Positions 2,447 to 37,784 of a DNA stretch of 64,000 nucleotides are shown one piece after another; within the stretch, counting starts at the first letter, position 1; every line of letters begins with the position of its first letter. A program made the translations under genes and the position numbers. The notes under the pieces are model-generated. The model was not told where the DNA came from, searched no databases, and worked only from the letters and a program-made list of their open reading frames with translations. Source of the stretch: an uncultured virus (IMG/VR IMGVR_UViG_3300001525_000359) (taxonomy: Duplodnaviria > Heunggongvirae > Uroviricota > Caudoviricetes); IMG/VR virus record IMGVR_UViG_3300001525_000359. One strand, 5' to 3'.

Positions 2447-3210
2447 AGACTATATCATCATCAAGCACTTCTCTCATCTACTGGAAACAGACTGAGAACA
2501 AGTCGAACATCAGCATCACTGGCTTCAATGGCAATGAGCTTGTTTTGAAGCCTGTGTATCATGATGTCTTTGCTAGCATTGCATCTGAGCTGAAGAGCAC
2601 AAAGTGCACAAAGCTTATCCCGCTTTGGCAGAAGACAATGTCTGAAGCTGAAGCTAAGCTCAGGCAACTTATGGCTAATGCAATCTTGAATCATAGCAGC
2701 AAAGATGCAGACAGCATTGACAGAGTCGTGTTCAAGTTTCGCGGCAACTGTGGTGAGATCTTTGCTGAGAAGCTCTTCACATCTGGGCTTGCTGCTGATG
2801 TCTGCAAGCTTGGATCGTATGTTCCAGTAGATCCGCATCATGAAGAAGGCATTGACGCGACTGGCATTTCGCCAGTGAGCAACATGAAGATAGGGATTCA
2901 AGTGAAGAACTTCTCAGAGAAGAACAAAGTGAAGCTTGAAGTGTTCAGGACAGCTGGAGATGAGTCAGACAAGATCGTCCATAGCTTAGAGAATGCTGAG
3001 CAAGTTCTTGCATACCTTAAATGCCCAGGCCAGATCATCTTCTCTTTCACTAATGCAGACAAGATCTTAGTAGAGAGCTACAAGAACAGAGTCATGTTCT
3101 TAGGCCCAGACTACATTGAGTCAAAGAAGCTGTGTGGAATGCCAGGATCTTCATGCGGCAACTGGACATTCTTCCAAGACATTGCTGATGAGATCAACAG
3201 TATAATTTAA
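2443..3210 (+). CDS. putative PD-(D/E)xK restriction-endonuclease-fold protein
   Basis: GEIFAE...EGIDATG...IGIQVKN resembles the E...D...QxK nuclease motif. Confidence 0.5.
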   Translation: MKTISSSSTSLIYWKQTENKSNISITGFNGNELVLKPVYHDVFASIASELKSTKCTKLIPLWQKTMSEAEAKLRQLMANAILNHSSKDADSIDRVVFKFRGNCGEIFAEKLFTSGLAADVCKLGSYVPVDPHHEEGIDATGISPVSNMKIGIQVKNFSEKNKVKLEVFRTAGDESDKIVHSLENAEQVLAYLKCPGQIIFSFTNADKILVESYKNRVMFLGPDYIESKKLCGMPGSSCGNWTFFQDIADEINSII

Positions 3211-3212
3211 TC

Positions 3213-3893
3213 ATGAATAATGACATTTATCAATACGAAGACTTTAGTGACTCATTGGTTTATAAGGATGGCAAAGCAGTTGCATGGAAAGACTGTTCTA
3301 ATCATGCTATCATATCAGAAAGCTCATTAAGCAGGACACTTGAGATAATTCGCACAAGTTCATTTGCAATATTGACTGCATATAGAAACACTGACAAGAA
3401 CGGTGTAAAGTTCACTAAGAAGCAGAATATTCTTAGAAACAGAAAGTTACGAGTCATTCTCAACAATATGTTCATGAGAGTGCATCAGCTTGTTGGACAC
3501 TATAAAGAGATTTCACATATAACACATAAGCCAGTTGATGTTGTAGAAAGAAGTTATCTTGTCAAAAAGAAAAATGGAATGACAGATAAGCAATTTGCAG
3601 AGCTTATCCAGAAATGTTTGACAATTGATGGTGAGACGCAAGACGGCGCATTGATGTCATTGAAAAGCAAAGACAATTGTTTTTATTTTATGACAAGTGC
3701 AATGAAGTTCAAAAAAGTTGGTGACAAGGTATCACTTGGAAAACTTGGTGAAATCTATTCTCAGCATGTTAGAAAGCTGAATGTCCCTTTTGTGTTTGAA
3801 GGTGAAGAATGTCCAAATGGCGGTATGGCCGGAGCAATGCTTTATAAAAGCCTTGGATATGCTTATGGTGGAAATCTTGGATTTGGTGAATAA
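3213..3893 (+). CDS. conserved phage hypothetical protein (DUF3293-like)
   Basis: ESSLSR...FAILTAYR...NILRNRKL...GHYKE...ERSYLV...QDG pattern. Confidence 0.45.
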   Translation: MNNDIYQYEDFSDSLVYKDGKAVAWKDCSNHAIISESSLSRTLEIIRTSSFAILTAYRNTDKNGVKFTKKQNILRNRKLRVILNNMFMRVHQLVGHYKEISHITHKPVDVVERSYLVKKKNGMTDKQFAELIQKCLTIDGETQDGALMSLKSKDNCFYFMTSAMKFKKVGDKVSLGKLGEIYSQHVRKLNVPFVFEGEECPNGGMAGAMLYKSLGYAYGGNLGFGE

Positions 3894-3924
3894 AATCATT
3901 GTCTAAGCGTATAAATTTTAATTT

Positions 3925-4644
3925 ATGAACAATGAGCTTCTAAATGAGATAAAACGTATATTTCCAAATGAATATGCAAATGACAACAATTATCAAGTAG
4001 CTGAACGTGATTTGTACGTGTTGTTTTCTCTAATAGATAAGTATGTTTTCAAAAATGAGTTCTCTTCAAACAAGATCATAATGCATATAGTAAATGCACA
4101 AACTGCATCTGATCTTTCGTGGAAGGGAAAGTTCTTTATATCTGAAAATGGTGATGACTTAGCAATCAACATATGCATAATGAAATATGATGTTGACAGG
4201 TTTTCACATATAATCAGTGTATTGTGTCATGAGATGATTCATGTGTTTGACTTCAAGAAGTCAATGTTGGGACAGATGTTCACTAAATATGGCAAAATTG
4301 AAGTCACTAGAATAGGTGGTAAGAAATTTGTGCATGGATATGATGTGCATGGCACATTCTTCAAGAGCTTTATTCCAAAGTTTAACAACTATGGGATAAT
4401 TGTCAATGATACATATAGTGTAAAGTCAAAGAATCTTATGAAGAAGATAAAAGAGTCTAAACGAAATGGAAATGATGTCATTGCAGAAATTCTTTTTGGG
4501 AAAAAGATTAATATCAATGAAACTGATATAGGCAAGTCTACTAAAAGAAAACGTCAGCTTGATGCATATGTAAAGTCATTGAAGAACTGCAATGCTGAGT
4601 TGATATACATTGATGACACTCATTGGGCAATTGGCATTGAATGA
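3925..4644 (+). CDS. SprT-like zinc metalloprotease
   Basis: VLCHEMIH followed by HGxxF. Confidence 0.7.
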   Translation: MNNELLNEIKRIFPNEYANDNNYQVAERDLYVLFSLIDKYVFKNEFSSNKIIMHIVNAQTASDLSWKGKFFISENGDDLAINICIMKYDVDRFSHIISVLCHEMIHVFDFKKSMLGQMFTKYGKIEVTRIGGKKFVHGYDVHGTFFKSFIPKFNNYGIIVNDTYSVKSKNLMKKIKESKRNGNDVIAEILFGKKININETDIGKSTKRKRQLDAYVKSLKNCNAELIYIDDTHWAIGIE

Positions 4645-4650
4645 CATCTA

Positions 4651-5220
4651 ATGCAGCGAAACTACATACTTAAGTATCAAGGCAGTAAAGCTGATGCAAA
4701 GCGTCTAGGTGCATTCTACACGCCACCTGCACTTGGCAAGCAGATGGTGGACAAGCTGTCATCGCCCATTGTCGGCAAGACATGTCTAGACAACTGCTGT
4801 GGATATGGTGGGCTTGTCTTGCAGATGCTAGACAAGAAAGTAGAGCAAGGTGAAGATGCTACGAAAGCATTGTCAGAAGTGTATGGCATTGAGTTTGACA
4901 AGAAGAATCTAGAAGTTTGCATAAGGAATCTTCGCATCTGGGCAGACAGGAACAATGCAGCTTGGAATGAAGACATGATCAGATCTCATTTCAGGCAAGG
5001 AGATGCATTGCTGGATGAGTCATATGAGTTCCCTGACAAGAAGTGGAATCTAGATAAGCACGTCGAGATAGAAGATCTTGAAGATAAGTATGTCATAAGA
5101 TCTGTTGTCAACAGCAAAGTCATGAAGAAGCTTGAGCTAAGCAAGAAGACACAGAAAGCGAAGATGAAAGAGCTTTTGCTTAAGCTAAAAGAGAAGAAAG
5201 TGAAAGTAGTCAGGACATAA
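4651..5220 (+). CDS. amino-methyltransferase, SAM-binding half
   Basis: LGAFYTPP (motif X), LDNCCGYG (motif I), YGIEFD, GDAL; ends without NPPY. Confidence 0.75.
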   Translation: MQRNYILKYQGSKADAKRLGAFYTPPALGKQMVDKLSSPIVGKTCLDNCCGYGGLVLQMLDKKVEQGEDATKALSEVYGIEFDKKNLEVCIRNLRIWADRNNAAWNEDMIRSHFRQGDALLDESYEFPDKKWNLDKHVEIEDLEDKYVIRSVVNSKVMKKLELSKKTQKAKMKELLLKLKEKKVKVVRT

Positions 5221-5275: not shown

Positions 5276-5714
5276 ATGGGAATTACGAAAGAGAACGCAA
5301 AGGATTTCATTGGCAAGTGGTGCTTGCATGATGAGAACAGGACTGGACATTACACCAAGCTTTTTTGTCAACGACATCAAGGAAGTGAAGACTGACTATG
5401 ATCTTGATAGCGAAAAGAGCTTGATGATCGAATACAGCTATGACAAGAAGAGATGGCAATATGCAGATCTCACTTTGTTCGGCCATGGCGACTTCATTGT
5501 CAGCCCATTCAAAGAGATTAAGTCAGACGAAAATGAAAAATCCGAATCTGGTGATGACATGAAGGATGATCGTCATGCATCATCATGGTTCTGGAAGAGT
5601 GTGTCTAGCTGTGAGAATGATTAGCATGACTGGATCGAGACAGATCTCATGTGCTATCCATCAAAGAAAGCACAAATATGCAAGAGATGCGGCGTAATGA
5701 AGTATGACAGTTGA
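5276..5714 (+). CDS. hypothetical protein with C-terminal C/H zinc-binding motif; apparent frameshift at T6 (5361-5366) and one read-through TAG
   Basis: ATG at 5276 after GGAG and a promoter; removing one T joins it to ORF 5310-5624; reading through TAG gives SCENDQHDW...CKRCG to TGA 5714. Confidence 0.5.
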
Positions 5715-6032
5715 ATATGCAGACTATGCTTTAAGGACATCTGTTGAAAGTGATGATGGCACAGATGATCTTGTCTTATATGTAGAATGTGATGATGAAT
5801 GGCTTTCATTCGATGAAGAGTATAGTGACACTGAGTTTGACATCTCAGTTGTATGTGAGCTATGACATCATTTGAGTGGACATTAGCCATTGAGTGGTGG
5901 CTAAGAAGTGCATCAAAGAAGTATAAATGGTGTGCAGTTGAAATCGGTGATAGTGCATTCACTGGAATAGAGTTTGAAGAGAACTCTACATATGTTGAGC
6001 TGGACATTAGTCCGTCATGCATCATTGGGTGA
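5704..6032 (+). CDS. two WxLRS mini-genes (5704-5865, 5862-6032)
   Basis: YALRT...ISVVCEL* and EWWLRS...ISPSCIIG*; ATGA overlap. Confidence 0.7.
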
Positions 6033-6943: not shown

Positions 6944-7096
6944 ATGTACAACTTTGCATATAATGTAGCTAAAGTATTTCTTCGAAGTGTCGTCAATGGA
7001 CTTCCAGCAGTTTCAATGATTGCTGAAAATGGAAAGATTCGTTCAACTAGCACAGGCTTTACTGATGCAGTGTCGACTATCACTTGTGTAATCTAA
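6944..7096 (+). CDS. WxLRS mini-gene
   Basis: MYNFAYNVAKVFLRS...STITCVI*. Confidence 0.6.
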   Translation: MYNFAYNVAKVFLRSVVNGLPAVSMIAENGKIRSTSTGFTDAVSTITCVI

Positions 7097-9850: not shown

Positions 9851-9968
9851 TCATGCAAATTCCAGTGATTTGGAAGATGTCCAAATGTCATGATGAATGA
9901 TATGATTTGAAGTGTAAAGCAAATCAACAGATAACAAACACAAAAAACACAGAAAAGGAACACAACAC

Positions 9969-10517
9969 ATGCAGTTCTACTACATTCGCAAGGAAGATGC
10001 CAAGCAGATCTCTGAGCTGTGCCATTCGTGTGAGAACGCGGATGTGCTGGAGCTTGAGCTCACGATGGCCCACAAGAACAACAAGATGGAGCTTGACGAG
10101 ATCAAGAAGATCTGCGAGATTGGCGACCGCATTCTCGTGAACTTCGATGGCAAGTACATTCCGTGGATCATCGTGGCGAAGCGTGATGACGGAAATCTCA
10201 TCATTAACTCGGAAGACTGCCTTGAGTCGCGGCGTTTCGACAAGTCGACGAACAAGTGGAAGGATTCAGAGATCCGCCACTACTTGAACAGCAAGGAGTT
10301 CAAGGCGCGATTCGACAAGGAGTTTCTCAAGTGTGTGAAGACAGCTGATGTACATACCGAGGACTATGTCACCAAGGATGACTTCTGGCTTCTCTCTCAC
10401 GAGGAAGTGAACTGCCCGGATGACCGCAAGTCCTGGTTCAAGCCGAACAAGGGCGCCGTCCGTTTCCCGTACTTCACGGACAATGCTTCGCGAATCAAAA
10501 AGATCTACGAAGACTAA
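9969..10517 (+). CDS. DUF6273-like protein lacking its C-terminal WWLRS module
   Basis: IGDRI...PWIIV...NKWKDSEIRHYLN...F...DDFWLLSHEEV...FPYFTDNASRIK then TAA; own promoter, RBS and terminator. Confidence 0.75.
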   Translation: MQFYYIRKEDAKQISELCHSCENADVLELELTMAHKNNKMELDEIKKICEIGDRILVNFDGKYIPWIIVAKRDDGNLIINSEDCLESRRFDKSTNKWKDSEIRHYLNSKEFKARFDKEFLKCVKTADVHTEDYVTKDDFWLLSHEEVNCPDDRKSWFKPNKGAVRFPYFTDNASRIKKIYED

Positions 10518-10574
10518 ACAATCTACCATCACTTTGCATTGCCATGAAGGCATCTGCGAAGTCAGCAATAAACG

Positions 10575-10607
10575 TGGCTAGGTGAAATACCCTAGCCATT
10601 TTTCTTT
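10575..10607 (+). terminator. intrinsic terminator
   Basis: tggctagg...cctagcca followed by a T-tract. Confidence 0.85.
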
Positions 10608-10624
10608 CACAGCATATACAATAT

Positions 10625-11570
10625 ATGACTGACTCATTCCAGTATAGCCTGAGAAGCTTATACACATATGAGATAGACTACTATGTGGTATGCACTAGGC
10701 TTGGCCCGCTGTTTGTAGAAAACTTCCAGTTCTTAAGTGGAGATGTTTCAGTATGCATGATATGAGAAAGCAAATCCATTACATCTTACGCGACAAGCAA
10801 GACGTGCAATGCAACGAGTATGCTGTTGTGCATGCAGATGAAAGGGGTGACATCTACATTCTTGACATGTTTGTCAGGTACAAAAGCATCTGTGGAGTGA
10901 ATGTCTCATGCAAAATCTGACAACTGGAAACGGTGCATACTGGATGTCACGAAGCGCATGTAAGCGACTGATCGGCAGTGCGAATGAAAAGTCATATGCA
11001 ATTGCAATGATCACACACGCTGGCAAAAGGACACATGTATGTGTGAATGACTGGCAAGAAAATGTGTTTCGCATAGCTCTAACTTGCTTGATATGACATG
11101 AATGACATCTGGACATGCACGTGGCAATTGCGCGACCGGAACATGCGCGCAGGGTGTGCTAAAAAATCCAACTTATAATGTGTCAGTGTTTGGAGATTTC
11201 TTTTCAGACAATGTGCATCATATTGAACATATCACACTATGCTGCATGATATGATGAATAATGCTGTCAACACAATGTATCGAATGCGTTCTCACTATGA
11301 CAAAAGAATGTTTCTGTCAGAGTATTTGTCATGTATAGGCTCATTGGGTGTTGTTGGCTTAACGCCTAACGTCGGCACGCTCAACATCATTGCATTTGCA
11401 TGCATCATCTGATGAAGACACTTCAACACAAGATCTGGCAGCTTCGCTCGACATCTGCAGATGAGTCCGATCAGATGAACTTCATGTCATACATAAGCTT
11501 CTATGGTGTCGTGAACTACTCGACATTCGCAAGACATGCTAGCAGTGTCGTAGCTGCATGCGTCATCTGA
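10625..11570 (+). CDS. six tandem WxLRS mini-genes (one frameshifted)
   Basis: YSLRS..VCMI*, YILRD..SCKI*, WMSRS..TCLI*, WQLRD..CCMI*, YRMRS..ACII*, WQLRS..ACVI*. Confidence 0.75.
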
Positions 11571-13614: not shown

Positions 13615-13712
13615 GATCTTCCGGCTTTCGCAAAGTGATTCCAGCTTAGCGACTCACTAGCATTTGTCTAGATGTCCGAAGTCATAGACAAATGATATGA
13701 TCTATACTGCAT

Positions 13713-13889
13713 ATGAATGTCAGAAGCAGTAGTTTGGTGTTGCGTTCTGCATGCCCTTCTATGAAGGACTTGTATGAGCAGCGACGTTTCTGGAATGCCG
13801 GCATTGCGTTTGTCATGACTGGACGTGGATGCCTGACTACAAACTTCATATTCAACGTGTATGACATAACGTTGTCATGCGTAGTTTGA
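13713..13889 (+). CDS. WxLRS mini-gene with own promoter
   Basis: LVLRS...ITLSCVV*. Confidence 0.65.
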   Translation: MNVRSSSLVLRSACPSMKDLYEQRRFWNAGIAFVMTGRGCLTTNFIFNVYDITLSCVV

Positions 13890-14799: not shown

Positions 14800-15924
14800 A
14801 TGGCAAACGGCATTGACAACCACAATTTCGTCAGCTCTGAGCAGGCGATCAGCATCATCGAGACTTCTGTGAAGACACTCATGAATTCGCCTGAGAAGTC
14901 GAACAGCCTGCCGGCAATTCTTCTTCGTGGTGCGCCCGGCGTCGGCAAGTCGACGATCGTCCGTGAAGTCGCAAACCGGCTTGGCATTGGATTCGTTGAC
15001 ATCCGGCTGGCGCAGATGGAACGTGTCGACCTTTGCGGGCTGCCTGAAGTCAAGAATGGCGAGACTAAGTGGGCAGTCCCCTCTTTCTGGCCGACTGACA
15101 AGAATTCCGCTGGCATCATCTTCTTCGATGAAATCACTTCGGCACCGGCTGATGTGCAGGTGGCTGCTTACCAGGTGGTGCTTGACCGGGCAATCTCAAA
15201 CTCTGATTACCGGCTTCCGGACAAGTGGTACATCGTAGCTGCAGGCAACCGTGCAATTGACAAGGCTGTTGTGAAGACTATGTCTTCTGCCCTTGCAAAC
15301 CGCTTCATGCACTTTGAACTCGACGTTGACACCGAGGACTGGAACATCTGGGCCGTCCAGCATGACATTCACCCGTCTGTCACTGGCTACATCCGGTATA
15401 AACCTCAGAACCTTCTGAAGATGGAAGGGATGAATCTTGAGATGGGCTGGCCTTCTCCGCGCTCGTGGGAACGTGTGTCTAACATCATCCCGATGTTCAA
15501 TTCTGATGAATCTGTCCTGCGAAAGACTGTATATGGCTTGATTGGCCCGGCAGTTGGCACCGAGTTCATGGAATTCCACCGAATCAACAAGCGCTTTGAC
15601 GATGTCCTCGAGATGATGACCAACCCTAAGAAAAAGGTGGTAATCCCCGCGAAGGCTGATGAGAAGCATGCGATGTGCTCCGCGGTGTCCTACCTTCTCT
15701 GGAACGGCAAGGACGAAGATGACCAGAAGGCGCGTATCTCCGGATTCTACCGGATCGCGATGGAATTCACTGCTGACTTCGCTACCCTTCTCGCTAAGAC
15801 TGCGATGGCAGGGAACTCGAAGGTGTCGAAACTGGAGGCGTGCTCAAAGATCGTGCGTGCACCTGAGTACAAGAAGTTCAATGCCAAGTTCGGCAATGCC
15901 TTCACCAAGAAGTATAGCCTTTAA
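14800..15924 (+). CDS. MoxR-like AAA+ ATPase
   Basis: Walker A GAPGVGKS, DLCGLP, Walker B IIFFDEI, VAAGNR, ALANRF, PSPRSWE. Confidence 0.92.
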   Translation: MANGIDNHNFVSSEQAISIIETSVKTLMNSPEKSNSLPAILLRGAPGVGKSTIVREVANRLGIGFVDIRLAQMERVDLCGLPEVKNGETKWAVPSFWPTDKNSAGIIFFDEITSAPADVQVAAYQVVLDRAISNSDYRLPDKWYIVAAGNRAIDKAVVKTMSSALANRFMHFELDVDTEDWNIWAVQHDIHPSVTGYIRYKPQNLLKMEGMNLEMGWPSPRSWERVSNIIPMFNSDESVLRKTVYGLIGPAVGTEFMEFHRINKRFDDVLEMMTNPKKKVVIPAKADEKHAMCSAVSYLLWNGKDEDDQKARISGFYRIAMEFTADFATLLAKTAMAGNSKVSKLEACSKIVRAPEYKKFNAKFGNAFTKKYSL

Positions 15925-18788: not shown

Positions 18789-20393
18789 ATGCGTAAAGTC
18801 GTAAAGAATGCGAAGGACGTTTCTGAAGAGAAGCTCAAGGAACTCAAGGAGAACGCTTTCGGGATTCTATGTGAAGCAAGACGAGAGCTGCTGGTGTCTG
18901 AGCCGTTCATTGGCTCGATTGCCATGAATCTCGACATTGTCCCGGTACGTGACATCCGGCTGCCTACTGCGGCTACCGATGGCGGCAAGATCTACTTTGA
19001 CATTGATTTCCTCTCTTCTCTCAACCGAGCGGACACGGTGTTTGTGCTGGCGCATGAAGTGTGGCATTGTGCGATGTCTCACTTCATTCGCAATGAAGGG
19101 CGTGATCATGAGCTCTTCAACATTGCAACTGACATGGAAGTCAACCAGATTCTTGAGACCGATGGAATGACAGTGCCTGAGAACTGCTTGATGCCTGCGC
19201 TCTACGGCTTCAAGAATGGCCTTTCTGCTGAGGAATACTATGAGCTTCTCTTGAAGAAAAAGCCGAACAAAGGCAAGAAGAGCAAAATCAAAGGCCAAGG
19301 CAAGCAGCAGAAGGGTGGTAGTGGTAGTGGAGATACCAATGAAGACACCGATGGTGAAGGTGAAGGCGGCCAGCCCAACAAAAACAAGAAGGGCAAAGGC
19401 AACGGCAACAGCTCTTCTGGTAGTGATGGCGATGAAGAAGACAATGATTCGCCGATGGGCAAATCTGGCAATGGCGAAGGCAAGCTTGATGGCCAGTTTG
19501 ACAAGCACATCACCGATCTTGACGATCCTGAACAGGAAGCTGGCAACAACAGGAAATCTGGAAAGAGCAAGAAGGGCACGGGCAAAAACAAGTGCGATGG
19601 CGATGAAGATGGTGAAGGCGAAGGTGAAGGTGAAGACGGAAATGTCGTAGCCGACAAGTATGGCAAGCTTGGAAAGGACAAAGACTTCCACCCTCGGCCT
19701 TCTAAGGAGCAGATCGACAAGATGCGCGAGATGGCTGTCGCTGCAGCCCAGCAGTATGAGCGCGACCGCGGATTCTTGCCTGCTAGCATGAAGCGGTTTG
19801 TGAACGAGCTGCTGACACCTAAAGTGGACTGGCGTGAAGTTCTTCACTCGTTCGTGACTCGTGCTATGGGTGAGAAATCCGACTGGAACCGCCCGAATCG
19901 CCGGTTCATCTCGTCTCACACTTACCTGCCTTCGCATTATGGCGACAAGCTGAAAGTGTGCGTTGGCATTGACACGTCTGGCTCGACTATGGGTGACATC
20001 CCCCGGTTCCTTGGCGAACTTAATGGCCTAGTGAAGTCGTTTGGCAGCTACGAGCTGACCCTAATTGAATGCGACGCCGAAGTCGGCAAATGCGAGAAGT
20101 ATGACGATGAGAATCCGCTTGATCTTGAGAACCTGCACTATGAGATGTCTGGTGGTGGTGGCACGTGCCTCAAGCCTATCTTTGACAAGATCAAAGAAGA
20201 GAATGTCGAGTGCGACTGCATCTGCATCTTCACTGATGGGTACACCGAGCATTTCACCAAGGATGACGACCCCGGAATCCCCACTCTCTGGATGCTCACT
20301 CATGGGTGCATGGACAACAAGCAGAACTATGACTTTGGCGAGTGCTGCGAGTTTGAAGAGGCTAAGCCTTCTTTTGATGACGATGGCGAATAA
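18789..20393 (+). CDS. DUF2201-type putative metallopeptidase plus VWA domain (MoxR partner)
   Basis: PTAATDG, VLAHEVWH, NIATD..VN, Gly/acidic linker, MIDAS IDTSGST, GGGGT, IFTDGY. Confidence 0.9.
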   Translation: MRKVVKNAKDVSEEKLKELKENAFGILCEARRELLVSEPFIGSIAMNLDIVPVRDIRLPTAATDGGKIYFDIDFLSSLNRADTVFVLAHEVWHCAMSHFIRNEGRDHELFNIATDMEVNQILETDGMTVPENCLMPALYGFKNGLSAEEYYELLLKKKPNKGKKSKIKGQGKQQKGGSGSGDTNEDTDGEGEGGQPNKNKKGKGNGNSSSGSDGDEEDNDSPMGKSGNGEGKLDGQFDKHITDLDDPEQEAGNNRKSGKSKKGTGKNKCDGDEDGEGEGEGEDGNVVADKYGKLGKDKDFHPRPSKEQIDKMREMAVAAAQQYERDRGFLPASMKRFVNELLTPKVDWREVLHSFVTRAMGEKSDWNRPNRRFISSHTYLPSHYGDKLKVCVGIDTSGSTMGDIPRFLGELNGLVKSFGSYELTLIECDAEVGKCEKYDDENPLDLENLHYEMSGGGGTCLKPIFDKIKEENVECDCICIFTDGYTEHFTKDDDPGIPTLWMLTHGCMDNKQNYDFGECCEFEEAKPSFDDDGE

Positions 20394-23591: not shown

Positions 23592-26159
23592 ATGATGAGC
23601 ATCCCATTAGACAGCTATGAGAGCATTGCCGACGCAGTGATCAGCATCAAGGCACATGATGAAGTGAAGCAACAGCTTGCTGAACATGAGCAAGTGTTCA
23701 CTGATGCTGTCAAGCTGATCTTTCCTGAGATTCTTCATGTCAGCAATGTCATGTGGAACTATACTGGATTCTTGTCTTACTATGCTAGGAACATCAGTGT
23801 CTGGACGCCTGCATCTGAGACACCCGTCTTGTCATTTTGCCCAAAGCATGACTTGAATGGCTACTCGAAGTTCACTTCTCAAGCTAGAGCTAAGCTTGCT
23901 GGCATTGCATGTGCATTGCATGAGCTGTTCTCGACAAGGAAACTCTATGCAGACATGCATATTGAAGATCGCTGTCCAGCTAAGCGAGCACTTTTAGGAG
24001 TGAAGCTTGACAACTCTGTCAGGAAAGCAAAGCACATTGCATTCTCATTCAACACAGACTTGAAGAGCTTGCCTGAGATGAAGGCTGCTCTCGAAGAGAT
24101 CAAGCTCAGCAAAAAAGATGTCGAGTCATGAAAGGCAAGCTTTTCCCAAGACTAGATGCTAGCGATGCTGAGATCACTGAGCAAGTCAAAAGCATGACTG
24201 ATGATGAAGCGACTAAGCTTCATAGCAACTTGCTTGTTGTCCTGAATGAAATCTGCAACTCTGTCTTGCCAGCTGCCATCAAATGGCAGACATGCAAATT
24301 CAAGTTCGGGTTTCATGAGAACAAGACACCTAGAGGCACTATCACATCTTGCTTCTCTATGTACATGACTGACACCGACTATCCAGACAGTGCACCTGCA
24401 ACAATTCTAGATGTTGACACGATCGAAGTCACATTCAAAGACGGGATAACGACAAATGATCGCCGGCATGAGTTCAAGACAGTTGTGAAAGCTCAGGACT
24501 ATGTCATGCTTGCTGCGTTGAAGCATCTGTTCATGACATGCAAAGGCTTCTATGTGACTAGGCAGATTCCAGTCAAGTCTACTGGAAGCACATTCTTTGA
24601 AAGCAGCATGAAGCATGAAGACACTAGCATATGCAAAGTCGAGAAAGATGCATATGCAAGTGTCCAAGCTAAAGTAGATCTTGCAGAATGCAGCACAATT
24701 GAAGAGCTTATGCTTAAGCTAGCAATTTCAACTTACACATAATCTACAAAAAAATGACAGAAGACACTATCATCATAGAGTTTGGCCAGCAAATTGAAGA
24801 CATTGCTTATCGCATCACACTTCTTAGCGACGATGAGATCAAAGACAACTTGAAAGAGTACACCAACATCATGAAAGCTTTCTGCAAGAAAGTGATGCCA
24901 AAGCTGTTTGGTGCAGGCAAGTACAAGATGGATGTCACTGACAACGGGTATGACGGTGCTATCATCAGCTTCACATGTGACACAGCTCATCCAGACAAGT
25001 TCGCCAACACCGAGAATGTCATTAGCATTGAGCAGCACTGCCCTGAGAACATGACTGAACTCAAGCAACGCCAGCTCTTCGCTCTTGTCTGCATGTTCAA
25101 GAGCATGTTCACTGAAGCTAGCAAAGATGAAGATCATCGCATGCCGTTCAACAACCACTGGACACTTGATGTCTCATCCGCAGAGATGATTCATAAGCAG
25201 CCAAAGATCCAGGGCTTCAATGGATGCACTCTGATGACTGAGAGTGTGATCAGCCAAGTAGTCAATTGCCCGGACTTGAAGACATTAGATGATGTCAAGA
25301 AGCATTTTGGCATTAAGCATAAAGTGAAGAAAGAGCAAGCACCAGCAGTTGACATGAAAGAAGCTGCAGAAGCGCAGCTAGACGCATTGAAAAAGCGCAT
25401 CAAAGCATCACAGAAGAAGATAAAGACGAAGACAAGTAGATCTACAAAGAAGAGCAAAGCAGTTAGCAAGAAGCATGTCAAGAAAGCAGCAGCGGCTGCT
25501 ACTAATAAGAAAGCACGCAACACTAAGAAGAAAGCTGCATGATGTCAGGCAACATAAGTGTCTTGAAAGGCTTAGACATTCCAAGCTTTGCAAAGCCTTT
25601 TCATGAGTATGAAGAAGCCGTTGTGAAGCTGGAGGCAGAAGCTCTTCATGCTCAGCACCGGTTCATGTCGGCTCTTCTAGACTTCATGTGCAAGCATGTC
25701 TTCCTAAGAGCATTTGACTTAGATGAAGTTTCTTATGCCTGCAAGCATGAGTACATCTGCAACAAAGATGACATCATCTCATTGCAGCTTAGCATTGTCC
25801 ATCCAGACAAGTTTGAGTCAGTTTTCTATGTCGATGTGCTCAACACTAGCTTCTTCATAGGCAAGAACAAGCTAGACAAGAGCTTGCCAGGCACAATGTT
25901 GAGAGCAGAGCTTGTCGCGATGCTGAATTGCATGCACACAATGTTCTCTGGAATATATGAAGTCAACTTGAAGCTTGCAACTGAGATCATCCAGCATGAG
26001 CATGAAGAAGCAGCTGGATTCACATATGAAGTTGAAGAAGAGCGGACTAAGGTGCTGAATGCTACTTTGCCATGCTTCCAGACTGTAGAAGAGCTTCTAG
26101 CAAGCTTCATGATATCTGGACTTGACTTTGCTAGTTTTCTAGAGAGCTATGTATCATAA
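23592..26159 (+). CDS. paralog family B, four tandem members (23592, 24128, 24754, 25539)
   Basis: Shared C..llP, (A)xL...l..lF and terminal T[IVL][ED][ED]L motifs. Confidence 0.7.
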
Positions 26160-29100
26160 CACGCCATGGCTATCAAGATCATGCATAAGGCAAGATAGGT
26201 TTAGCACCCAATGCTGTGTTATCTATGCAAGCAGTGAGATCAATGCTTTCTTTGTCTACAAAAACTACTATGGAATCACATTTGCTTGCATTGTATGAGA
26301 TATGAAGAAAGCTGGTTTCTCAGGTCAATGCCAGATGCATTTGATGTCATAGCAAATGCGCCAGTCTCGAGCATTGACATGAATGGCGATGCAATAGTAT
26401 GCTTGCATGTCTTTGACATGCCACATGGCATTTGTGTAGTCTGCATCATATGAGCATACGACAGTATCTTCCGCCCAGGCATTGCATTGAAAGCTATGTC
26501 CTGAGAACTGCTTCTAGAGTAGAGATGGACATGGGCAGGATGTGGATGGTGAGCACCGCTGCAGAAGTAGATGAAGTTGGCGACTTGACAAATGGAGTCA
26601 TTCTCTATGATCTTGCTTATGCGTGTGCATGTGTCATCTGAAGTGTCCAAAGCTATTTCAGTTTGATACAATTTGCATGCAATGATGGCAAAGAAGACAT
26701 CATGGAGCTTAAGGTCAGAGCATAATGCTGTGTATGAGGTGTACACCGGCAACATAATTGCTAGCATATATGTCACAGGTGAAGTAGACTGCTTTGGCAT
26801 TGACTTTCCACGGTGCTTCTCTGGAGCTTGCATGATATGAGAACTGGACACGAATGCTTTTTCTACATGTTAAGGTCATGCTCATGCTACTTGTCTAGTG
26901 ACAGCATTTGCGTCTACATGTCTATTATGGAAAAAGACAACTTCAAGAACTTCATTTGCGCAAATGACTTCTATGGGACTTCTGTCTCAACTGTTGTATG
27001 AGACGTATTGAGAGAAGCTGGTTTCTTAGGTCCGTTATGGACGGCACAACATATGGTGTTGGTGCAGTGTTCAAAGACAGTCATGTCATCGACTATTTCG
27101 ATGCAGAAGCCAGCATAGTGGGCATGACATTAGCAACAATTGTATGATGAAGACAGTCATGATGTTACGGTCACGGCATAGATGCGATGACAATGCTGGT
27201 GCAGTGTCTTCATTTGGGACATTGTCATACATGCATCATAATGATGCATATCTAGATGTTGCAATTTTATGCATGATATGATTGTCAGCATATCGCAGTA
27301 TTGGCTTAGGTCATGTCAAGGAGCAGCAGCAAATACATTGATGTCACCGGCATCTTCAAACTCTAGTCACATCAGCGAGCTTGCATGTGCAGTGCTTTCA
27401 TCTGGAAATGTTGACATGTTCTACTGCTGGCTTAGGCGTGCAGCATGGGTGAATGCAGCATGCATCATATGAAGTGCACTAGCATAGCTGTCAAGAACTG
27501 GCTTAGGTCAGCAAATGCAGGCACTATAGAAGCAACTGCATCTATGTATGCAGCTAATGTGTATGTAGATGGCCAAGTCGAGATAAGACATAGATACGTC
27601 AATATTGGATGTTCACCGGTATGCATAGTGTGAACAGTCATGACAATGCGTATGTCAGCTACATTGGCGTCACTGGCCATTATGACAGCATCAGCAGCCA
27701 GTCTTTCTTTAGCATGTCTTGCATGATATGATCTCAAAATGGTGTCTTCTAAGGTCCTGCTCTAGAGTTGATTTCCATTATGTAGCTTCAGTTGAGCATG
27801 ATGCTGTTCTAGACTGGAATGTGCGCAACTGCAGCAATGTCACATTGTCATGCATTGTCTAAGAGATCTAAGATGTCCAAAGTCATTTAAAAATGATATG
27901 ATATCTAGTCATGCAGAACGTCACATGGTGGCTTAGGTCTATTCCAGTTTCAGATGGCAAAGAAAGCAAGCTGTTCCACAAGAGTGAAGTCAAGTTGTAT
28001 GCAGGCGCCGCTGGAGTCAATGCATATCTAGATCCATTCATTGGATATGCTCGCATCACTAGAGATGTCATATGCTCATCGCCTGCATGCATGATCTAAG
28101 CAGATTTCGCTATGTCGACTTGCGTCTTAGAACGACAATGGCATCATCAATGCACAAATACGTCATACTGTGCTAAAGACATCATGAGCATTTTCCCATT
28201 CTTCATGCTGAGGTCGATTTCAGTTAGAATGCATATGCTGGACAGAGTTTCATACATCAGTTCTACTGGAAATGTCGACGGGTTCTCAATTCATGACAGC
28301 ACAGTGTTCATGCTGTCATGTGCATGCTTGATATGATGCTTGCATGGCAGCTTATGCCAGGTTTTCTATGATGTCCAAGATCATACACAAATGATACAAT
28401 CTTATTATGAGCACAACAAGATGGTGGTTCAGGTCGGCTGACAATGAAGACACTCACATGTTGACATCACGACTTAGATTTGCTGCAGTGTTCAACTTCA
28501 CTGACTACAGTGTCATGAGAGTGATATATGATGATGTGAATGTCTTGCCAGCAGCAGTCATATGAGCAGCAACAGCAAATTGCCTGTCAAAATGTGGACA
28601 TTGCGGTCATTTCATGCTAGCAATGCTAACACTGGACATTATGTGTTCCTTAGCTGCGCTCATGATGACGGGCAAACTGGTGGAGCAGTCCTGCCATGCA
28701 ATGCAGGCGTCATTGTTGCCGCCGAGATCTGAGATATGCAACTTCAAGAGAAATAGTTATGAGCTTCAGCAAAGCTGTAAGACATTTCTTCAGGTCAGCG
28801 GCTAATGACAGCTTTTCGTCTAGCTATGCGCCAGTCTATGCATGTGCAGGTGATCTTGACGGCAAATGCTTTTTCTATGACATCTTGACAAGACAGCATG
28901 TCGGTGCATGCTGCATGATTTGACACATGAAGACTACTGTCCAATGGTGGCTAAGAACTGCTGAATATGACTCAGACTACAGCCCAGGACATGTCTTCAC
29001 AACTGCAATTAGCTTCTTGGGTGAATATGACACAAAGCTAGTGCTTGACGTGTTCACTCAGATTTCGCCAGCGGCACTCATATGAACAGCTCAAGATGGC

Positions 29101-32100
29101 TTCTCAGGTCTAAGACATATGAAGACAGCAAAGCATATGATCGTGTCTTGTATGCTGTCCAGTGTGATGGCTTCATCCCTCAAATCTGGTTAGACATCTT
29201 CAGAGAAAGGCAAATATGTCCAGCAGCAGTGATATGAAGCACAATGTCAGGTGGATGCTCAGGTGCAAGTACACGGAGTATTCGCATCCAAAGCAATGCA
29301 TGATCGTGCATAAGACAGGCTGGACTGACATCAATGACGTTGACATGAATATGTCATATGTTTGCGCAACATGCATGATCTAATGAAGACAGACGAAACA
29401 TCATACTGGCTTAGGTCTATTCCAGACATTGCGGTCTTGACTGCATTTTCGCCTAACGTTGACACAGATCACATAGATGAGAATGTAGCAGCGATTCTCA
29501 TTTCAGGGCAGCCCGACTGCTTCTATGTCTGGCTAAAGCACTCTTTGAAAGCAAGCATGACATGCATGATATGATGGTGCAAAGATTCCCATACTGGACG
29601 TGACTTAGATCGGTTAGCATTGACGTCAGGCAAATATGCACAAGAAATGTGTCATGCTCAACTGTTGGCAAGCTTGATGCATGCTGCACATATGCAAGCA
29701 TGCACTATGAACATATATGTCGTGCTTTTGCAGTTTCATGTGAAATCTAAGATGTCCAGGCTTCTGGACATTTGATATGATTTGACTGTCATGATGAAGA
29801 GAACTGGACATATGCTTAGAAGCATCTTCAAAGCTGACTCACTAGACACAGCTAACAGCATGGGCTATATCTGGCATAATGGAAGCTTCACTATGGTTGG
29901 TGTAGAAGTGCCAGTGAACATTGCATATGTGTGCGTAATCTGAAGAAATCGTCATGAAAATGGCAGACTGGCATCTCAGGTCAGCGCATGAGCGCGACAG
30001 AAGCTTCAATGCGCAAGTTCTCTACACAGGCGTTCTAGGCACAGAGTTCATCCATTACTACATGTCACATGTTTTGCCAGCATGCATCATCTAGTATAAA
30101 GCAAGATGTCCAAGTTTTTAGACAAATGATATTATCTAGACATGATGAAGCAAATGAACTTCTGGCTTAGGTCTTCAAGACATGATCGCAAAAGCAATCC
30201 ATTCAACATCAAGACATGGACTTATGCAGGCACCACTGGCATAAACAGATGTCTAGATCCGTTTATTGGAGTTGAGCCTGTCTATGAGATGCAAGCTTCT
30301 TTGCCAGTATGCATGATCTAAGCAAGCATCTCTACACAAGTCATCTTTGCTTTATGCATGTGCATTCAATTCTACAGAGTAGAGCGTTATGAGAAAATCA
30401 ACTAAGCTTTCATCAGCAGCATTCACATGATGTTTTTAAACACAACAAAAGACTGGACTTTCAGGTCATACACCATTCCAGAATCTAAGAGAAAAGCTGG
30501 CAAGACTATGCGATATACGCGTGTTGCTTTTGCTGGTTTCAATGGAAACATAGGTGCATTATACAATACGTCGTCACAGTCATTTGGCTATGACTGCGGC
30601 ATTGCATTAGCAGCAGTCATATGAGAATGATACATTACTTCTGCAGGTCAGCACGAACTGATGAGATCGTGATGTATGCAAATGAATATAACTGCATGGT
30701 CACATCTTTTGGCGAAGTTCTTCATGCTATGATCTGGTCGAAAGTGATAGCATTTTCAGCATCATGCATTGTCTAAAAGCAACGGTTTTCCTCAGGTCAT
30801 CTCAATCTAATGGCTGGAATGATCCTGCTGACAGCATCACTACAGTCGTAGGCATAGACATGCATGGCGATGTCTTGCTTTATCGTGGACATTATGTGCA
30901 TGAGATAAGCATTGGAGCAATGATATGATGAACGCCACAGTCTGGCTTAGGTCAAGACATTCAAGCTTCATGACAGGCTCTATCTTGCAAGATGGCGCTG
31001 TCTATATCAGCATGGTAAGTCATGACACAGATCTGCTAAGCATTTCATGTGTAATTGCCTGAAAAATAAAATGAATCCAAGCTTCTAGACAAATGATATG
31101 ATCTAGACATGAAGGCAAAATGGATCATCTCTAGCTTCATGCTAAGGACAAAGGACACTTATATCAAGGAAAATGTAGTTGCAGTGAGTGGAAATGGCAT
31201 TGATTTCATTTCAAACAGGCCTTACTGGACATTCGATGCAACTGTGCCGGCATGCATAGTGTAAACAAGTCATATCTTCTAAGGACAGTCACAAGCGCAT
31301 TCAAAGCAAATGCGACTTTTGCAACAGAAGCGTGCTTGCATAGGCCAGATTTCAGCTATTGTCACATTGAATATTTAGCGGGGATTTCAGGAGCATGCAT
31401 GATCTGAATAACATAGCAACTTACTGGCTTAGGTCAACGACAACAGCATCTAAGCGGACAAGCATGTCTAAGCTAGATCATGCAGTTGTCTATTTTCATC
31501 CTTTCAAGCAGATGCTAGAATTCAGCTTTTGCTATGACAACAACAAAATGGAGATGTCATTTGCATGCATGATCTAGCATTAAGCAAGATGTCCAAAGCT
31601 TTAGACAAATGATATCATTTAGACATGAGCATTGCAAGATGGTGGCTTAGGTCAAGTGACAATGAAAAAGCATACTCGTACAAGTCAAGCATGCTCTACA
31701 TTGCTGTCTTCAACTCCACAGAGTGGAGCGTTATGGGTGTGATGAGCACAACAACAAAGCTTTGCCCAGCTGTCATGATATGAAAGACGAATATGCAAGC
31801 TACTACTGCAGGTCAGTAAGAGACGATGATCTTGCTAGCATGCCAGATGACTTTGTCTGCATGATAAGCTCAAGCGGCGAGGCACTTCATTGCATGAATC
31901 AGTCAGCATCATTTGACATGAGCATCTCTTGCATTGTCTAGAGAAAACATGAACTCAGCATACTCATGGCTGCTTAGGACATGTGGGTGTGCATCAGCCG
32001 GTGACACAGCGTTTGCACTCAATGCCAGCATCAGCATCTGGAAAGGCAACGCAGATCTAGACATGAGCTTGCTAGCATCGGCGATATCAGCAACATGCAT

Positions 32101-35100
32101 GATATGACTTTTCAACAAGAAGCAGAAAGCAGCTTTTTTATGCCAGTTGACATCACAAAACACCGCTTGCATAAGCACTTGCAGCATGAGCTAAGCATAG
32201 CAGCAATGACATGCATTGTCTAAGATGTCCAGAAATCTAACTTTTTGATATAATCCTAAACATGATGAGAGAAGCAACAGCACAGTGCTTGCTGAGATCG
32301 ATGGTTGTTGGACATGCCAAGAATGCCGTCATGAACATCAATTACGGTCATGTGACATGGAGCTTCTCAACTGTCAAGCTTTTAGCAATTTCAGGAACAT
32401 GCATGATATGAAAGAATCAGACAGGATCAAGACAAGCTGGCATCTCAGGTCTAGAAGTGAAAGCTGCATTGCATGTGTCTCATCTGCAAGCTTCATTGTC
32501 TATGACAACGTAGACATGTACAGCAACATCGCGCCTGCATTCATGATATGACAGATCATTATCCATATAACTGGTACTTGAGATCATCGCATGCAGACGC
32601 ATTCTTCTTCTCTCATGCAATGCAACTTGATGAAGCTGGCGTAGTAGATACCATCTTTGTAGAGACACTTTTCGGGATCTCGACTTCATGCATGATCTAG
32701 TCATTAAAGCAAGCAGAAAAATGTACGTAATATATAGGCTAAGGTCCGTCTTTATGAGATCTGCTGCGCATATGCTCAGGACAGGAGTTGTCTATGCTTA
32801 TGGAAATGTAGATGGCTTTATTATAATTGTACATGACGAAGACTTCTGCTTCACCGTCACTACAGTTGTCTAAAAAAGAAAGCATGAAAGCCATCTACTT
32901 TCTCAGGTGCAGGTTGATGTATGTCTCACAGTTCTTGTATGCAGGGCAGAAGCTTGTCATCATCTGCAAGAGCATCACACTCATAGACGGTACAGGCAAT
33001 GACTGCATGCTTGCATCTGACGAGCTTGGCATCTCTGGAGCTTGCATGATATGAAAAAGGACACTTACTGGTATTTGAGAAGCAATGCTGGCTATTTCAC
33101 TTGCAATAACCAGAGAGTTGCGCTTTCCGGCGTCTACGACGGCATTTATAATTCAGAAGTGAAATTTGAGTACTGGATCTTGGGGACATGCATGATATGA
33201 CAAGAATGATCGAGACAAGCTGGTTTCTAAGAAGTGATGCTAAAGCTATCATCATACATGATAGCTTCAGTGACTACATAAAAGAAGTTGCAATAATAAG
33301 TGCTTTAGCGAACAAGGGTGCCACACAAGCACGATTTGATCAAGGGATTTCAGGAACATGCATGATATGAAAGTACTTAAGAAGACATGCTGGCATTTGC
33401 GGTCAATGTCAAGCGACAGCTTCTACACAGCATACATTGCAATTTCACCAAATGAAATGACAACAACGAAGCTCTGGTGGATTGCGAATGGCTGCAGCAT
33501 GACATGCATGATCTGAACTTCAAGTGAAAACGGGAAAAATGAGATACACGACATTCTTTTGCTGGTCTTTGCGAGACATGCACATGTCAACATCTAAGAT
33601 CTATGAGAATGACATCAAAGTCATTGACTACAACGGCTATGCGTGGAACACAGGTGTCATAACAGAAAATGACATCTGCATGACATGCATTGTCTAAAGA
33701 AAAAGCAAGACATATGAGCAATCACTGGCAGTTTGGAGAAGTTTTCCTCAGGACATCTTGCATAAGATGTCAAGCATCATTCATGGCATGGAACTTCTTC
33801 ACCAGAGAGCTTGTGTTTGATCCAATTCCACCTGACTTCACATATGACATCTCGCCAGCATGCATTGTCTAGAAGATCTTAATATGTCCAAGATCATAGA
33901 CTTTTGATATAATGCAGTCATGAAGAAGATGCTGATCACATGGTTGAGACTGAGAAGTGCATCTGGACGCACTTCTTATGGAGGCAAAGCATGTGTTGGC
34001 GTCATGCTTGATGATGGCCAGCTGTCATATCATGTGTCAAGATCATCCGTCATAGCTTTGCCAGCATTATGCATGATCTGACAAGCAACAGAAAACATGA
34101 AAAGCAAGACTCATAGCATATCGGGACGGCTTCTCAGGACTGCTGACATCTGCATGAAGCAGAACATCGTTGCAGTCGACAGCTCAGGTGGCTTCTTGTC
34201 AAACAGGCCTTACTGGACATTCGATGCAGCTTTGCCTGTCTGTGTCTTCTAAAGAAGTCATGATATGCTGTGTAGACAGCCGGTGTTCTGTGGTCAATGC
34301 TTCAATGGGAAGAAGTGCTTTTAAGCATGAACGATGCAATGTCATGAAGTGCCGGCTGAAGTAATCTCTGTCTCGACATGCTGTATGATATGAGATGCCA
34401 GTGCACATATGCTTTGAGGACGCTTTCTGCAGCTGAAAGCTTGACTTGCATGACTTTTGCAATCAGCGTTTTCGGGAAGTCGTATTTCGGGATGATGGTG
34501 CCTGAGAAGACTGGCATCTCAACAGCATGCATTATCTAAGAGCATGATGAAGATCTTCTGCATACCGGCTGTCTGGTGGCTCAGGGCAGAGAATGCTGGC
34601 GTCATTGACATGGCAGTTGCACGCAAATACGCAAGCGATGTCTACTTCAATGGCGCAGTCGAGATCCGAGACAAGCATCTCTACTCAGTGCATGTCTCGC
34701 CAGTATGCTGCATTTGAGATGCTAGCATTAAGCAAGATGTCCAAAGCAAAGATGAAATGATATGATTTAGACATGAACAACTACAGCAAGCCTCTGCCTG
34801 AAGGCGGATATCAGCTGAGGACAGCATATGAAAGCACGACAATGAAAGCATATGATGTCAGGCCAGTCTTGCCAGCATGCTGTGGCGGATGGCGAGAAGC
34901 ACGAGCAACCGACTTCTCAGAAGTGCCAGTCATCATGTGCAGTGTCATCTGGTGCTCAAGATGGACATCTGCATTGACTTGCTTGCCTCCGGGGATGACT
35001 AGCAGCAAAGATCGTGTCAAAGCTGCGATAACATGCATCATCTGATGAGCACCGAGACATCTTACTTCTTGCGGACAAGGACAGCTGGCATCGATGACTG

Positions 35101-36984: not shown

Positions 36985-37008
36985 AAAAAGAATGCAAAAA
37001 AGAAAGAA

Positions 37009-37581
37009 ATGATTGACGGGATTCCAGTTGGGTCGCTAGAGAAGATTGCAGAGCATGTCAGCATCTTGCCAGAGAAGACGGCTTTGGCAGAGAAAGAAGT
37101 CGTGTCAGGTGTCATTGACTTCGTCTTCAGGCAGTTCTTGCCGAAGAAGCTGCATCTCATGCCTGGCATCAGGTTCAGAGCATTTGCATCTGGCGAGCGC
37201 GACAAAGTCAAAGATGACTTCAGTGTCAGGACTATCTACAAGATCAGCTACGGTGTCTGGGTAGTCAATGAGATGTCAGGAAACAGTGAATGTCTTGGCA
37301 GAGTTGTTGACGGCTTCAAGACGGCTCGGTTCGTGACAAGTGATGTGCATGCAGAGCTTCTCGCTAACATTGTGATCTTGCATGAGATCTTCTGCGGCAG
37401 CAAACGACATGTCAATGCAGATGATGACTGCATCAAGTGGCAAGATGGTGTCTTGACAGTCAAGTCAAGAGACGTGAGCTTCATTTTCCCGAAGTTCGAG
37501 ACTGTGGAAGAGATTGTGGCTTCTTTCACTTGTGCTGGATATGACATGAAGATTGACTTCTCGGAGCTTGAGAAGCAATGA
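37009..37581 (+). CDS. paralog family B member
   Basis: HAELLANIVILHEIFCG...FETVEEIVASF..AGYD, closest to 25539. Confidence 0.7.
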   Translation: MIDGIPVGSLEKIAEHVSILPEKTALAEKEVVSGVIDFVFRQFLPKKLHLMPGIRFRAFASGERDKVKDDFSVRTIYKISYGVWVVNEMSGNSECLGRVVDGFKTARFVTSDVHAELLANIVILHEIFCGSKRHVNADDDCIKWQDGVLTVKSRDVSFIFPKFETVEEIVASFTCAGYDMKIDFSELEKQ

Positions 37582-37784
37582 GAAATGAGATAGATGTGAC
37601 AATGCACGACGATGAGTTCACATGTGCTTTCTGGAGCTTGAGGTCTTCGGGAGAAGATGCTAGAATCCCGACTTTGCGAGTTGATGATCTTCGGGAGACA
37701 GTTGCTGTCTTAGACATTGAGGGGTACCCATTTGCTGATGTCATTGGCTTTGAGGCTGACATATGTGCTGCATGTCTTATCTAG
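37578..37784 (+). CDS. WxLRS mini-gene
   Basis: FWSLRS...ICAACLI*. Confidence 0.75.
   Translation: MRNEIDVTMHDDEFTCAFWSLRSSGEDARIPTLRVDDLRETVAVLDIEGYPFADVIGFEADICAACLI

Follow-up and report, generated by a model that had tools for sequence, protein, structure and literature searches.

A DUF6273 domain apparently shared between one scaffold gene and many mini-genes in an uncultured phage

The DNA analysed here, referred to throughout as the window, is a stretch of 64,000 nucleotides from a large uncultured phage (IMG/VR record IMGVR_UViG_3300001525_000359, Caudoviricetes). Positions 9,969 to 10,517 host a gene, denominated the scaffold gene, which encodes the body of a DUF6273 domain and stops before its C-terminal part. 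At least 65 small open reading frames (ORFs), denominated mini-genes, are found at several loci of the same strand, and their common profile matches the part that the scaffold lacks. The interpretation somewhat favoured is that of a split binding protein, in which the constant DUF6273 body is completed in trans by alternative mini-protein tips. The phage would have taken a C-type-lectin-like DUF6273 domain, whose C-terminal tip is as a rule a target of hypermutation by diversity-generating retroelements (DGRs), and divided it into two genes. The gene at 9969-10517 would provide the constant body. The mini-genes would encode proteins of 40-70 amino acids, each supplying the two framework strands that the body lacks, one with W.LRS near the start and one with ..C[MIV][IV] at the end, separated by a different variable loop region of about 35 residues. 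Body and tip would be translated separately and assemble non-covalently, the strands of the tip slotting into the beta sheet of the body. One scaffold could give rise in this way to dozens of binding proteins with different tips, with neither a reverse transcriptase nor DNA rearrangements. We infer that the pieces bind each other, that all the tips are used, and that their targets are the host surface or host proteins.

The scaffold gene is accompanied by its own expression signals.

9969-10517, + strand: scaffold gene, 182 amino acids, ATG to TAA; an N-terminal helical part followed by DUF6273 profile positions 2-120 of 172, the variable C-terminal third being absent
9898-9906, + strand: promoter-like motif TGATATGAT, of the extended -10 type, preceding the scaffold gene
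9954-9959, + strand: Shine-Dalgarno-like AAAGGA, 9 nt 5' of the scaffold ATG, from direct reading of the sequence
10574-10609, + strand: terminator-like hairpin (10574-10599) plus T run, 3' of the scaffold gene

The product matches the Pfam DUF6273 model (PF19789) with an E value of 1.1e-10 and 42.1 bits, the gathering cut-off being 23.5. Residues 75-179 correspond to the profile positions listed above, and the last 50 positions or so are missing. Alignment to a full-length relative, P0014, places the end of the scaffold about 8 residues ahead of the WWLRS position. The whole DUF6273 domain, inclusive of WWLRS and the C-terminal strands, is not found in one polypeptide in the scaffold. The frame downstream of the TAA contains several further stops, and no WLRS-like remnant was found in it. 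Readthrough by stop-codon recoding was considered and rejected, because several in-frame stops follow and the stop codon varies among relatives (TAA in the window, TGA in the related contigs L001 and L006). The GC content at third codon positions is 0.76, the highest of the 52 long ORFs (mean 0.50, standard deviation 0.08); the strongest codon bias in the window is what would be expected of a subunit common to many partners. A sequence-only reading of the window, made from its letters, had described an intact gene with its own signals, whose DUF6273 body stops a few residues short of WWLRS with no WLRS remnant ahead of its terminator, and all this was borne out.

Nine homologues of the scaffold were found among 28 candidates. 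Eight of them are 181-189 amino acids long, are 53-92% identical to the scaffold, and all end in ..RIK.IYE(D) or ..IWE; only the 49% identical relative, P0014, is full length. Many invariant core residues are kept in the truncated homologues down to 53% identity. Since eight relatives end at the same site and the 49% relative is full length, the truncation is, to judge from these alignments, old and kept, with no sign of recent decay. A full-length gene in close relatives, the sign of recent truncation that the sequence-only reading had asked about, is not what was met, as 8 of the 9 homologues stop at the same position. An exhaustive search with P0014 returned 726 proteins at E <= 0.001. They include other short proteins of 131-179 amino acids (P0016, P0021, P0033, P0112, P0096), which also stop before WWLRS and whose records are possibly incomplete. 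Three candidates with 10-15 matched stretches (P0074, P0107, P0138) were dropped as low-complexity tandem repeats. When a tree is built from the shared part (29 rows), the truncated forms group together, with 3 changes versus a shuffled mean of 10, and none of 500 shuffles gave a value as low. The well-supported branches of this tree are compatible with a single origin of the truncated forms, and full-length proteins of the DGR type form a clade of their own (support 100/99).

Mini-proteins have a recognizable layout. A methionine and 5-15 residues precede the motif [WYF]x[LM]R[ST], which is followed by a highly variable stretch of about 35 residues around a central glycine, and by the end [AST]-C-[MIV]-[IV]-stop. 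A profile was built from 50 seeds, + strand frames chosen by pattern (an end C-x-[IVLM] and an LRS-like motif near the start). It retrieved 65 of the 1393 stop-to-stop frames of at least 25 amino acids at E <= 0.01, every one of them on the + strand and none on the - strand, and about 8 additional matches were weaker than this threshold. Since the seeds had been pattern-chosen, a fixed pattern was also applied without the profile: frames of at least 35 amino acids, with a Cys-x-[IVL] end and, at a distance of 33-62 residues from it, [LMF]R[STD] preceded by a methionine. It is fitted by 44 ORFs on the + strand (380 frames) and by 0 on the - strand (508 frames). Intact ORFs are 63 of 65, and the remaining two look broken. 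The loci are the following.

2122-2313 (directly behind a promoter motif at 2107) and 2309-2446, + strand: two mini-genes upstream of the scaffold gene, found with the profile
5704-5865 and 5859-6032, + strand: two mini-genes, with an ATGA-type overlap
6944-7096, + strand: a single mini-gene, profile E 1.2e-05
10625-10765, 10753-10920, 10908-11096, 11092-11254, 11239-11412 and 11400-11570, + strand: six mini-ORFs directly downstream of the scaffold gene
13713-13889, + strand: a single mini-gene, directly behind a promoter motif at 13693
26149-37784, + strand: the main array, about 52 mini-genes of 40-70 amino acids in short operons
45423-45602 (strong) and 45599-45733 (weak), + strand: two mini-genes

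The sequence-only reading had counted six mini-genes at 10625-11570 and about 75 peptides overall. The total is close to that found here, and six small ORFs do lie behind the scaffold gene, with overlapping start and stop codons, but only four of them are clear family members (profile E 4.8e-07 to 1.2e-13). The ORF at 10908-11096 is weak (E 4), and the next appears frameshifted (11092-11178 plus 11102-11254). The end of the main array also includes a 190-amino-acid ORF (37009-37581), which has no family match and is unrelated to the mini-genes. Both this ORF and the one that precedes the array (25539-26159) end in ..VEE[LI][LV]ASF.., and the two may be related.

The mini-genes carry start codons of their own. 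An in-frame ATG is found upstream of LRS, within the open frame, in all 63 motif-bearing mini-genes, mostly 7-17 codons before the leucine, the open stretch upstream of LRS having a median of about 19 codons. Neighbouring mini-genes are frequently arranged for coupled translation: in 35 of 62 pairs a candidate ATG is found no more than 12 nt before or 20 nt after the point where the upstream stop codon ends, with 17 ATGA overlaps. Operons of the main array are opened by a promoter motif abutting the ATG and continued through overlapping stop and start codons, and the spacers of about 44-56 nt within the array are the places holding the promoter motif. The motif, TGATAT[GAT]AT, occurs at 30 sites on the + strand and at 1 on the - strand of the window. 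It precedes many ordinary genes too, and the sites include 8562, 9194, 9898, 12015, 13926, 14723, 17218, 17975 and 18740. In ten mini-genes the motif, the same that precedes the scaffold gene, lies 6-8 nt before the ATG, a spacing which suggests leaderless messages. At eight sites the motif falls on the codons for the Cys-Met-Ile-stop end of a mini-gene (TGCATGATATGAT), so that the conserved end of a mini-protein may double as promoter for the next gene.

In the mini-genes the conserved leucine of LRS is encoded by all six codons (13, 10, 9, 9, 7 and 5 times), and the conserved serine by both TCN and AGY codons. Because these residues are spread over many synonymous codons, the mini-ORFs are very probably translated. 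The best paralogue pairs have nonsynonymous divergence (dN) of 0.36-0.7, with synonymous divergence (dS) saturated or undefined, and the top amino acid identity is 57%.

The mini-proteins correspond to what the scaffold is missing. An alignment of 49 of them, compared by hhalign to the alignment of the family, falls on residues 188-231 of P0014 (probability 96.9%, E 1.4e-10). The boundaries of the fragments are complementary, as the scaffold covers profile positions 2-120 and the mini-gene profile the missing C-terminal part, in line with the proposal of the sequence-only reading that the peptides match that part. P0014 (235 amino acids) is 49% identical to the scaffold and, after ..RIKEIWNKDGEREARF, runs into WWLRSACANDCSSVGLVSDGGYISNNFAYNLYGGLSPACSIICNR (WWLRS...PACSII). 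Its AlphaFold model has a mean predicted local distance difference test score (pLDDT) of 95.9 and a predicted template modelling score (pTM) of 0.92, and residues 186-232 form five strands in it. The nearest solved fold is that of the immunoglobulin A (IgA) peptidase of Thomasclavelia ramosa, PDB 9qa6 (Foldseek E 2.5e-08, TM score 0.56 when normalised on the query). C-type lectins such as CD23 are weak Foldseek matches, ranked below 9qa6. The N-terminal domain of the peptidase is named DUF6273 in the paper describing it, and two papers present DUF6273 as a C-type-lectin-like domain with the DGR variable region at its C-terminus.

Docking in silico was carried out with the scaffold and one of the 65 mini-proteins, that encoded at 26682-26837, each with its own alignment, and with three controls. 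The interface score ipSAE was 0.92, 0.94 and 0.94 in three runs, the best of the 3 controls giving 0.00. Among solved complexes 116 of 157 attain the mark for this score, as do 2 of 215 mismatched pairs, a calibration which is rough here, own alignments having been used. At least 97% of the contacts are in common among the runs, and the pLDDT of the partner is at least 81. In the model, the last residues of the mini-protein (49-52) find partners at scaffold positions 77-81, 123-124 and 139-141, and the partners of its LRS (residues 10-12) are at 141-144. Each chain is modelled better in company of the other. The pLDDT of the scaffold is 91-93 beside the mini-protein, and 64 and 77 beside unrelated partners; that of the mini-protein is 81-86 with the scaffold and 31 with an unrelated chain. 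The one peptide modelled is docked at the missing position, as the sequence-only reading had envisaged.

The truncated gene is kept in two related contigs, one viral of 81.6 kb, estimated 44% complete (L001, also G001), in which the scaffold is 62% identical, and one metagenomic of 79 kb (L006), in which it is 65% identical. As in the window, the scaffold gene of L006 lies upstream of genes for an AAA ATPase and a DUF2201 protein.

14800-15924 and 18789-20393 of the window, and 14265-16890 of L006: genes for a MoxR-like AAA ATPase and a DUF2201 metallopeptidase/von Willebrand factor A (vWA) protein, downstream of the scaffold gene

A single match to DUF6273 is present in G001. The window-derived mini profile gave only 1 match in the related contig, and a pattern search was needed there. 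With the fixed pattern, 12 ORFs on the + strand and 1 on the - strand of G001 end in Phe-x-[IVL] and none end in cysteine, as against 44 Cys-type and 1 Phe-type ORFs in the window. All the G001 mini-ORFs are located 4-9 kb upstream of the scaffold gene, and about 5 similar mini-ORFs are found upstream of the scaffold gene in L006. It is of interest that scaffold residue 79, which contacts the -3 residue of the mini-protein in the docking model, is isoleucine in the window and cysteine in the G001 lineage, the -3 residue being cysteine and phenylalanine, respectively. In the model, Ile79/Cys(-3) versus Cys79/Phe(-3) has the appearance of a compensatory exchange. The mini-ORFs of the relatives are probable counterparts of the mini-genes, unproven because the profile matches are weak. 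Conserved separate fragments with complementary boundaries would fit a naturally split domain, the mini-ORFs of the relatives being recognized by pattern and strand bias, plus weak profiles. A search of the mini profile against a set of 5.8 billion proteins gave 2 matches out of 105 candidates, both from the window itself, and is uninformative on the spread of the family.

Several observations weigh against a domain completed in trans. None of 8 single mini-proteins matches the Pfam model at E <= 1; they fall short of it because too short and too variable. The docking covers 1 of 65 mini-proteins, and what it shows, as a model, is complementarity of the pieces, which is neither binding nor a choice between joining in trans and in cis. 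As the DUF6273 fold is already solved (9qa6), a high two-chain score may just rebuild the domain. For the pattern-picked mini-ORFs of the relatives, the match of their profile to the family is weak (hhalign E 0.011, probability 4%), as is that to the mini-genes of the window (E 0.0012, probability 19%). The co-variation of residue 79 and the -3 residue is one evolutionary change. The GC content of the mini-genes at the three codon positions is 0.41, 0.42 and 0.49, and the excess of the first over the second position that is usual in the genes of this phage is absent. The arginine of LRS is AGG in 36 of 63 mini-genes, compared with 16% in the long genes of the phage, and AGA in 14 of 63, compared with 22%. 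The AGG bias hints at an added constraint at the nucleotide level. Finally, a ratio of 1 scaffold to 65 tips, as observed within the 64-kb window, is unprecedented.

The mini-proteins might be autonomous, as decoys, inhibitors or binders of lectin-like or DGR-target proteins of the host, and the truncated scaffold might be unrelated to them or act separately. The existence of several loci, and the distance of 16-28 kb separating most mini-genes from the scaffold gene, would suit such an arrangement. It is nevertheless unlikely. The mini-protein that was modelled has no confident fold in the absence of the scaffold (pLDDT 31 next to an unrelated chain, 81-86 next to the scaffold), and it is made of core strands of a larger fold. 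In addition, truncated scaffolds and mini-ORFs co-occur in the window and in the two related contigs, with lineage-specific framework residues that match.

Another explanation is that the locus is a relic, the scaffold being a decaying former DGR target and the mini-ORFs a functionless archive of old variable regions. DGR-type signatures are indeed clear in full-length relatives. In five proteins of 38-50% identity (L009-L013), third codon positions after WWLRS have A at 0.00, C at 0.51 and T at 0.39, that is 0% A and 90% C or T, and the variable part is composed of Y, S, D, G, V and N, with Y, S, D and G dominating. These proteins would be DGR targets; their status is taken from composition because their short contigs show no reverse transcriptase. 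Reverse transcriptase (RVT) or Avd families were not found among 80 ORFs of the window searched with Pfam, or among 52 searched with PHROGs, and RVT_1 was not found in the 81.6-kb G001, as would suit a decayed system; 2 of the 65 mini-ORFs look broken. The mini-genes themselves do not bear the mark. Third positions in their variable regions (2034 codons) are A 0.23, C 0.28, G 0.18 and T 0.31, and all 20 amino acids are represented. Neither a DGR template repeat nor an NNY or adenine-mutagenesis signature was found, and a role of the mini-genes as DGR template cassettes was rejected on the basis of codon signature and translation signals. A relic is quite improbable also on other grounds. Truncated homologues down to 53% identity stop at one and the same place and keep many invariant core residues, 63 of 65 mini-ORFs are intact and have starts, synonymous variation and saturated dS with kept protein similarity point to purifying selection, and the codon bias of the scaffold is the strongest in the window.

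The mini-ORFs might alternatively form a library of silent cassettes, placed behind the scaffold or a full-length copy by recombination, either site-specific or by conversion of the pilS/pilE or vls type, so that a given genome would express a single tip at any time. One scaffold facing many tips resembles cassette systems, and over part of the array the ends of the framework consist of short stretches of conserved nucleotides (TGGCTTAGGTC; TGCATGATATGA). Moreover, the portion of the genome examined is 64 kb. Against this stands the organization of the mini-genes. An ATG is present in each of the 63 motif-bearing cassettes, joined in many by a promoter or a coupled start, and a silent cassette would need none of these. 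The scaffold lacks a variable region or a flank to be replaced, and no remnant is found past its stop. The 65 mini-ORFs lie on one strand, and several are upstream of the scaffold gene in the window, in G001 and in L006, so that a simple deletion or inversion cannot join them to the scaffold. No recombinase family was detected among 80 ORFs of the window with Pfam, or among 52 with PHROGs. Paralogues have at most 57% amino acid identity and saturated synonymous sites, which leaves little DNA homology for gene conversion. The unfused form, lastly, is found in all eight relatives, and a cassette library has a very low probability. The sequence-only reading had proposed a constant scaffold with interchangeable C-terminal peptides, joined in trans or by recombination in cis. 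The former mode is favoured, since start codons, promoters and coupled starts belong to the mini-genes themselves, several of which are upstream of the scaffold gene; the latter has no support, as no recombinase, shared recombination site or fusion allele was found.

Joining at the level of RNA or translation, by trans-splicing, RNA ligation or ribosomal bypassing of the scaffold message to a mini-gene, might be evoked by the Rnl1-type RNA ligase and other RNA-repair genes of the window and by the AGG bias in LRS, which suggests a nucleotide-level constraint, but is scarcely credible. A terminator lies behind the TAA of the scaffold gene, neither an intron-like nor a bypass element was observed, the mini-genes are equipped with starts of their own, and the stop codon varies among relatives (TAA, or TGA in L001 and L006).

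A wider proposal, which includes the origin of the split binding protein, can be advanced tentatively. The phage would encode a germline two-chain repertoire, in which a constant DUF6273 chain pairs post-translationally with any of at least 65 inherited mini-chains. The system would descend from a DGR target whose variable region split off and multiplied, fragment complementation replacing hypermutation by reverse transcriptase, and the related lineage would have co-evolved its own framework.

Long ORFs of the phage are nearly all on the + strand. Matches to Pfam and PHROGs in the window include an AAA ATPase, a DUF2201 metallopeptidase/vWA protein, an Rnl1-type RNA ligase, Thg1, PTH2, IF3, pieces of methyltransferases and a Ste24-type peptidase. 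The AAA ATPase is about 32-34% identical to those of jumbo phages (Bacillus phage G and PA5oct-like phages). Among GenBank phages, no nucleotide match to the window and only one distant protein match (33% identity) were found. The Thg1 (tRNA-His guanylyltransferase) homologue at 51553-52419 contains one in-frame TAG at 52003-52005. The two halves correspond to PHROG profile positions 2-134 and 140-212, and TAG terminates only 3 of the 52 long ORFs; recoding of TAG or a split gene could account for it. Similarly, an IS607-like element of L006 (about 2478-4379) is open only with readthrough of in-frame TAGs. ORFs 1315-2082 and 4651-5220 match positions 2-106 and 287-362, out of 383, of phrog_11371 (N6 DNA methyltransferase), with mini-genes and other ORFs in between, and may be another split or permuted gene. 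The Ste24-type CAAX prenyl protease gene (43639-45003) encodes a Peptidase_M48 domain and a five-helix N-terminal domain. A CaaX link of this protease to the Cys-x-Ile/Val ends of the mini-proteins was considered and discarded, as the cysteine is at -3 and not at -4, no prenyltransferase was seen, the mini-proteins of the relatives have phenylalanine at that position, and the strand is buried in the model.

In literature searches DUF6273 was met only as a DGR target or as part of an IgA peptidase, and neither a split form nor banks of tip-only genes were found. If the pieces do assemble, the system would represent a third natural route to a large binding repertoire on one fold, next to somatic or DNA-level diversification (DGRs, shufflons, cassette conversion, V(D)J) and to simple gene families. 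Combinatorial diversity would arise post-translationally, as fragments complement each other within one domain. The system would also show how a DGR may be replaced after loss of the retroelement, and would offer a natural split scaffold ready for the display of variable loops.

Known systems share one or another of these traits. In shufflons and invertible tail-fibre segments (R64 Rci/PilV, Mu Gin, P1 Cin), one of several alternative C-termini, which determine binding specificity, is attached to a constant N-terminal part. Joining occurs in cis by DNA inversion, and involves a recombinase, inverted repeat sites and 2-7 alternatives. The window similarly has one constant N-terminal part and alternative C-terminal parts, but its 65 mini-genes are all on one strand and have their own start codons, and a recombinase was not found. 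In silent-cassette variation (Neisseria pilS/pilE, Borrelia vls), a bank of variable segments lies beside one constant expressed part. The cassettes lack promoters and start codons and have DNA flanks in common with the expression site, whereas the mini-genes are independent translatable genes and the scaffold has no segment to be replaced. In phages of the T2 type, gp38 is a small variable protein, separately encoded, which sits non-covalently on the constant protein gp37 and sets specificity. Unlike the window, gp38 and gp37 are two complete folds in one-to-one pairing, not halves of a domain, and there is no library of alternatives. The DUF6273 domain of the T. ramosa IgA peptidase, nearest to P0014 among solved folds, is made of a single chain within a large secreted bacterial protease, with neither a split nor mini-genes. 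A further parallel is with DGR variable proteins (tentaclins of gut phages, Mtd-like target2 proteins, Mtd of Bordetella phage), which have, like the window, a DUF6273 or C-type-lectin-like domain with the variable part at the C-terminus. In both cases many binding specificities are hosted on one fold. Reverse transcriptase and template repeat were not found in the window, and its mini-genes lack the NNY signature (third-position A 23%); unlike in DGR systems, the variable part resides here in other genes, at least 65 in number, which are inherited separately rather than made by a reverse transcriptase.

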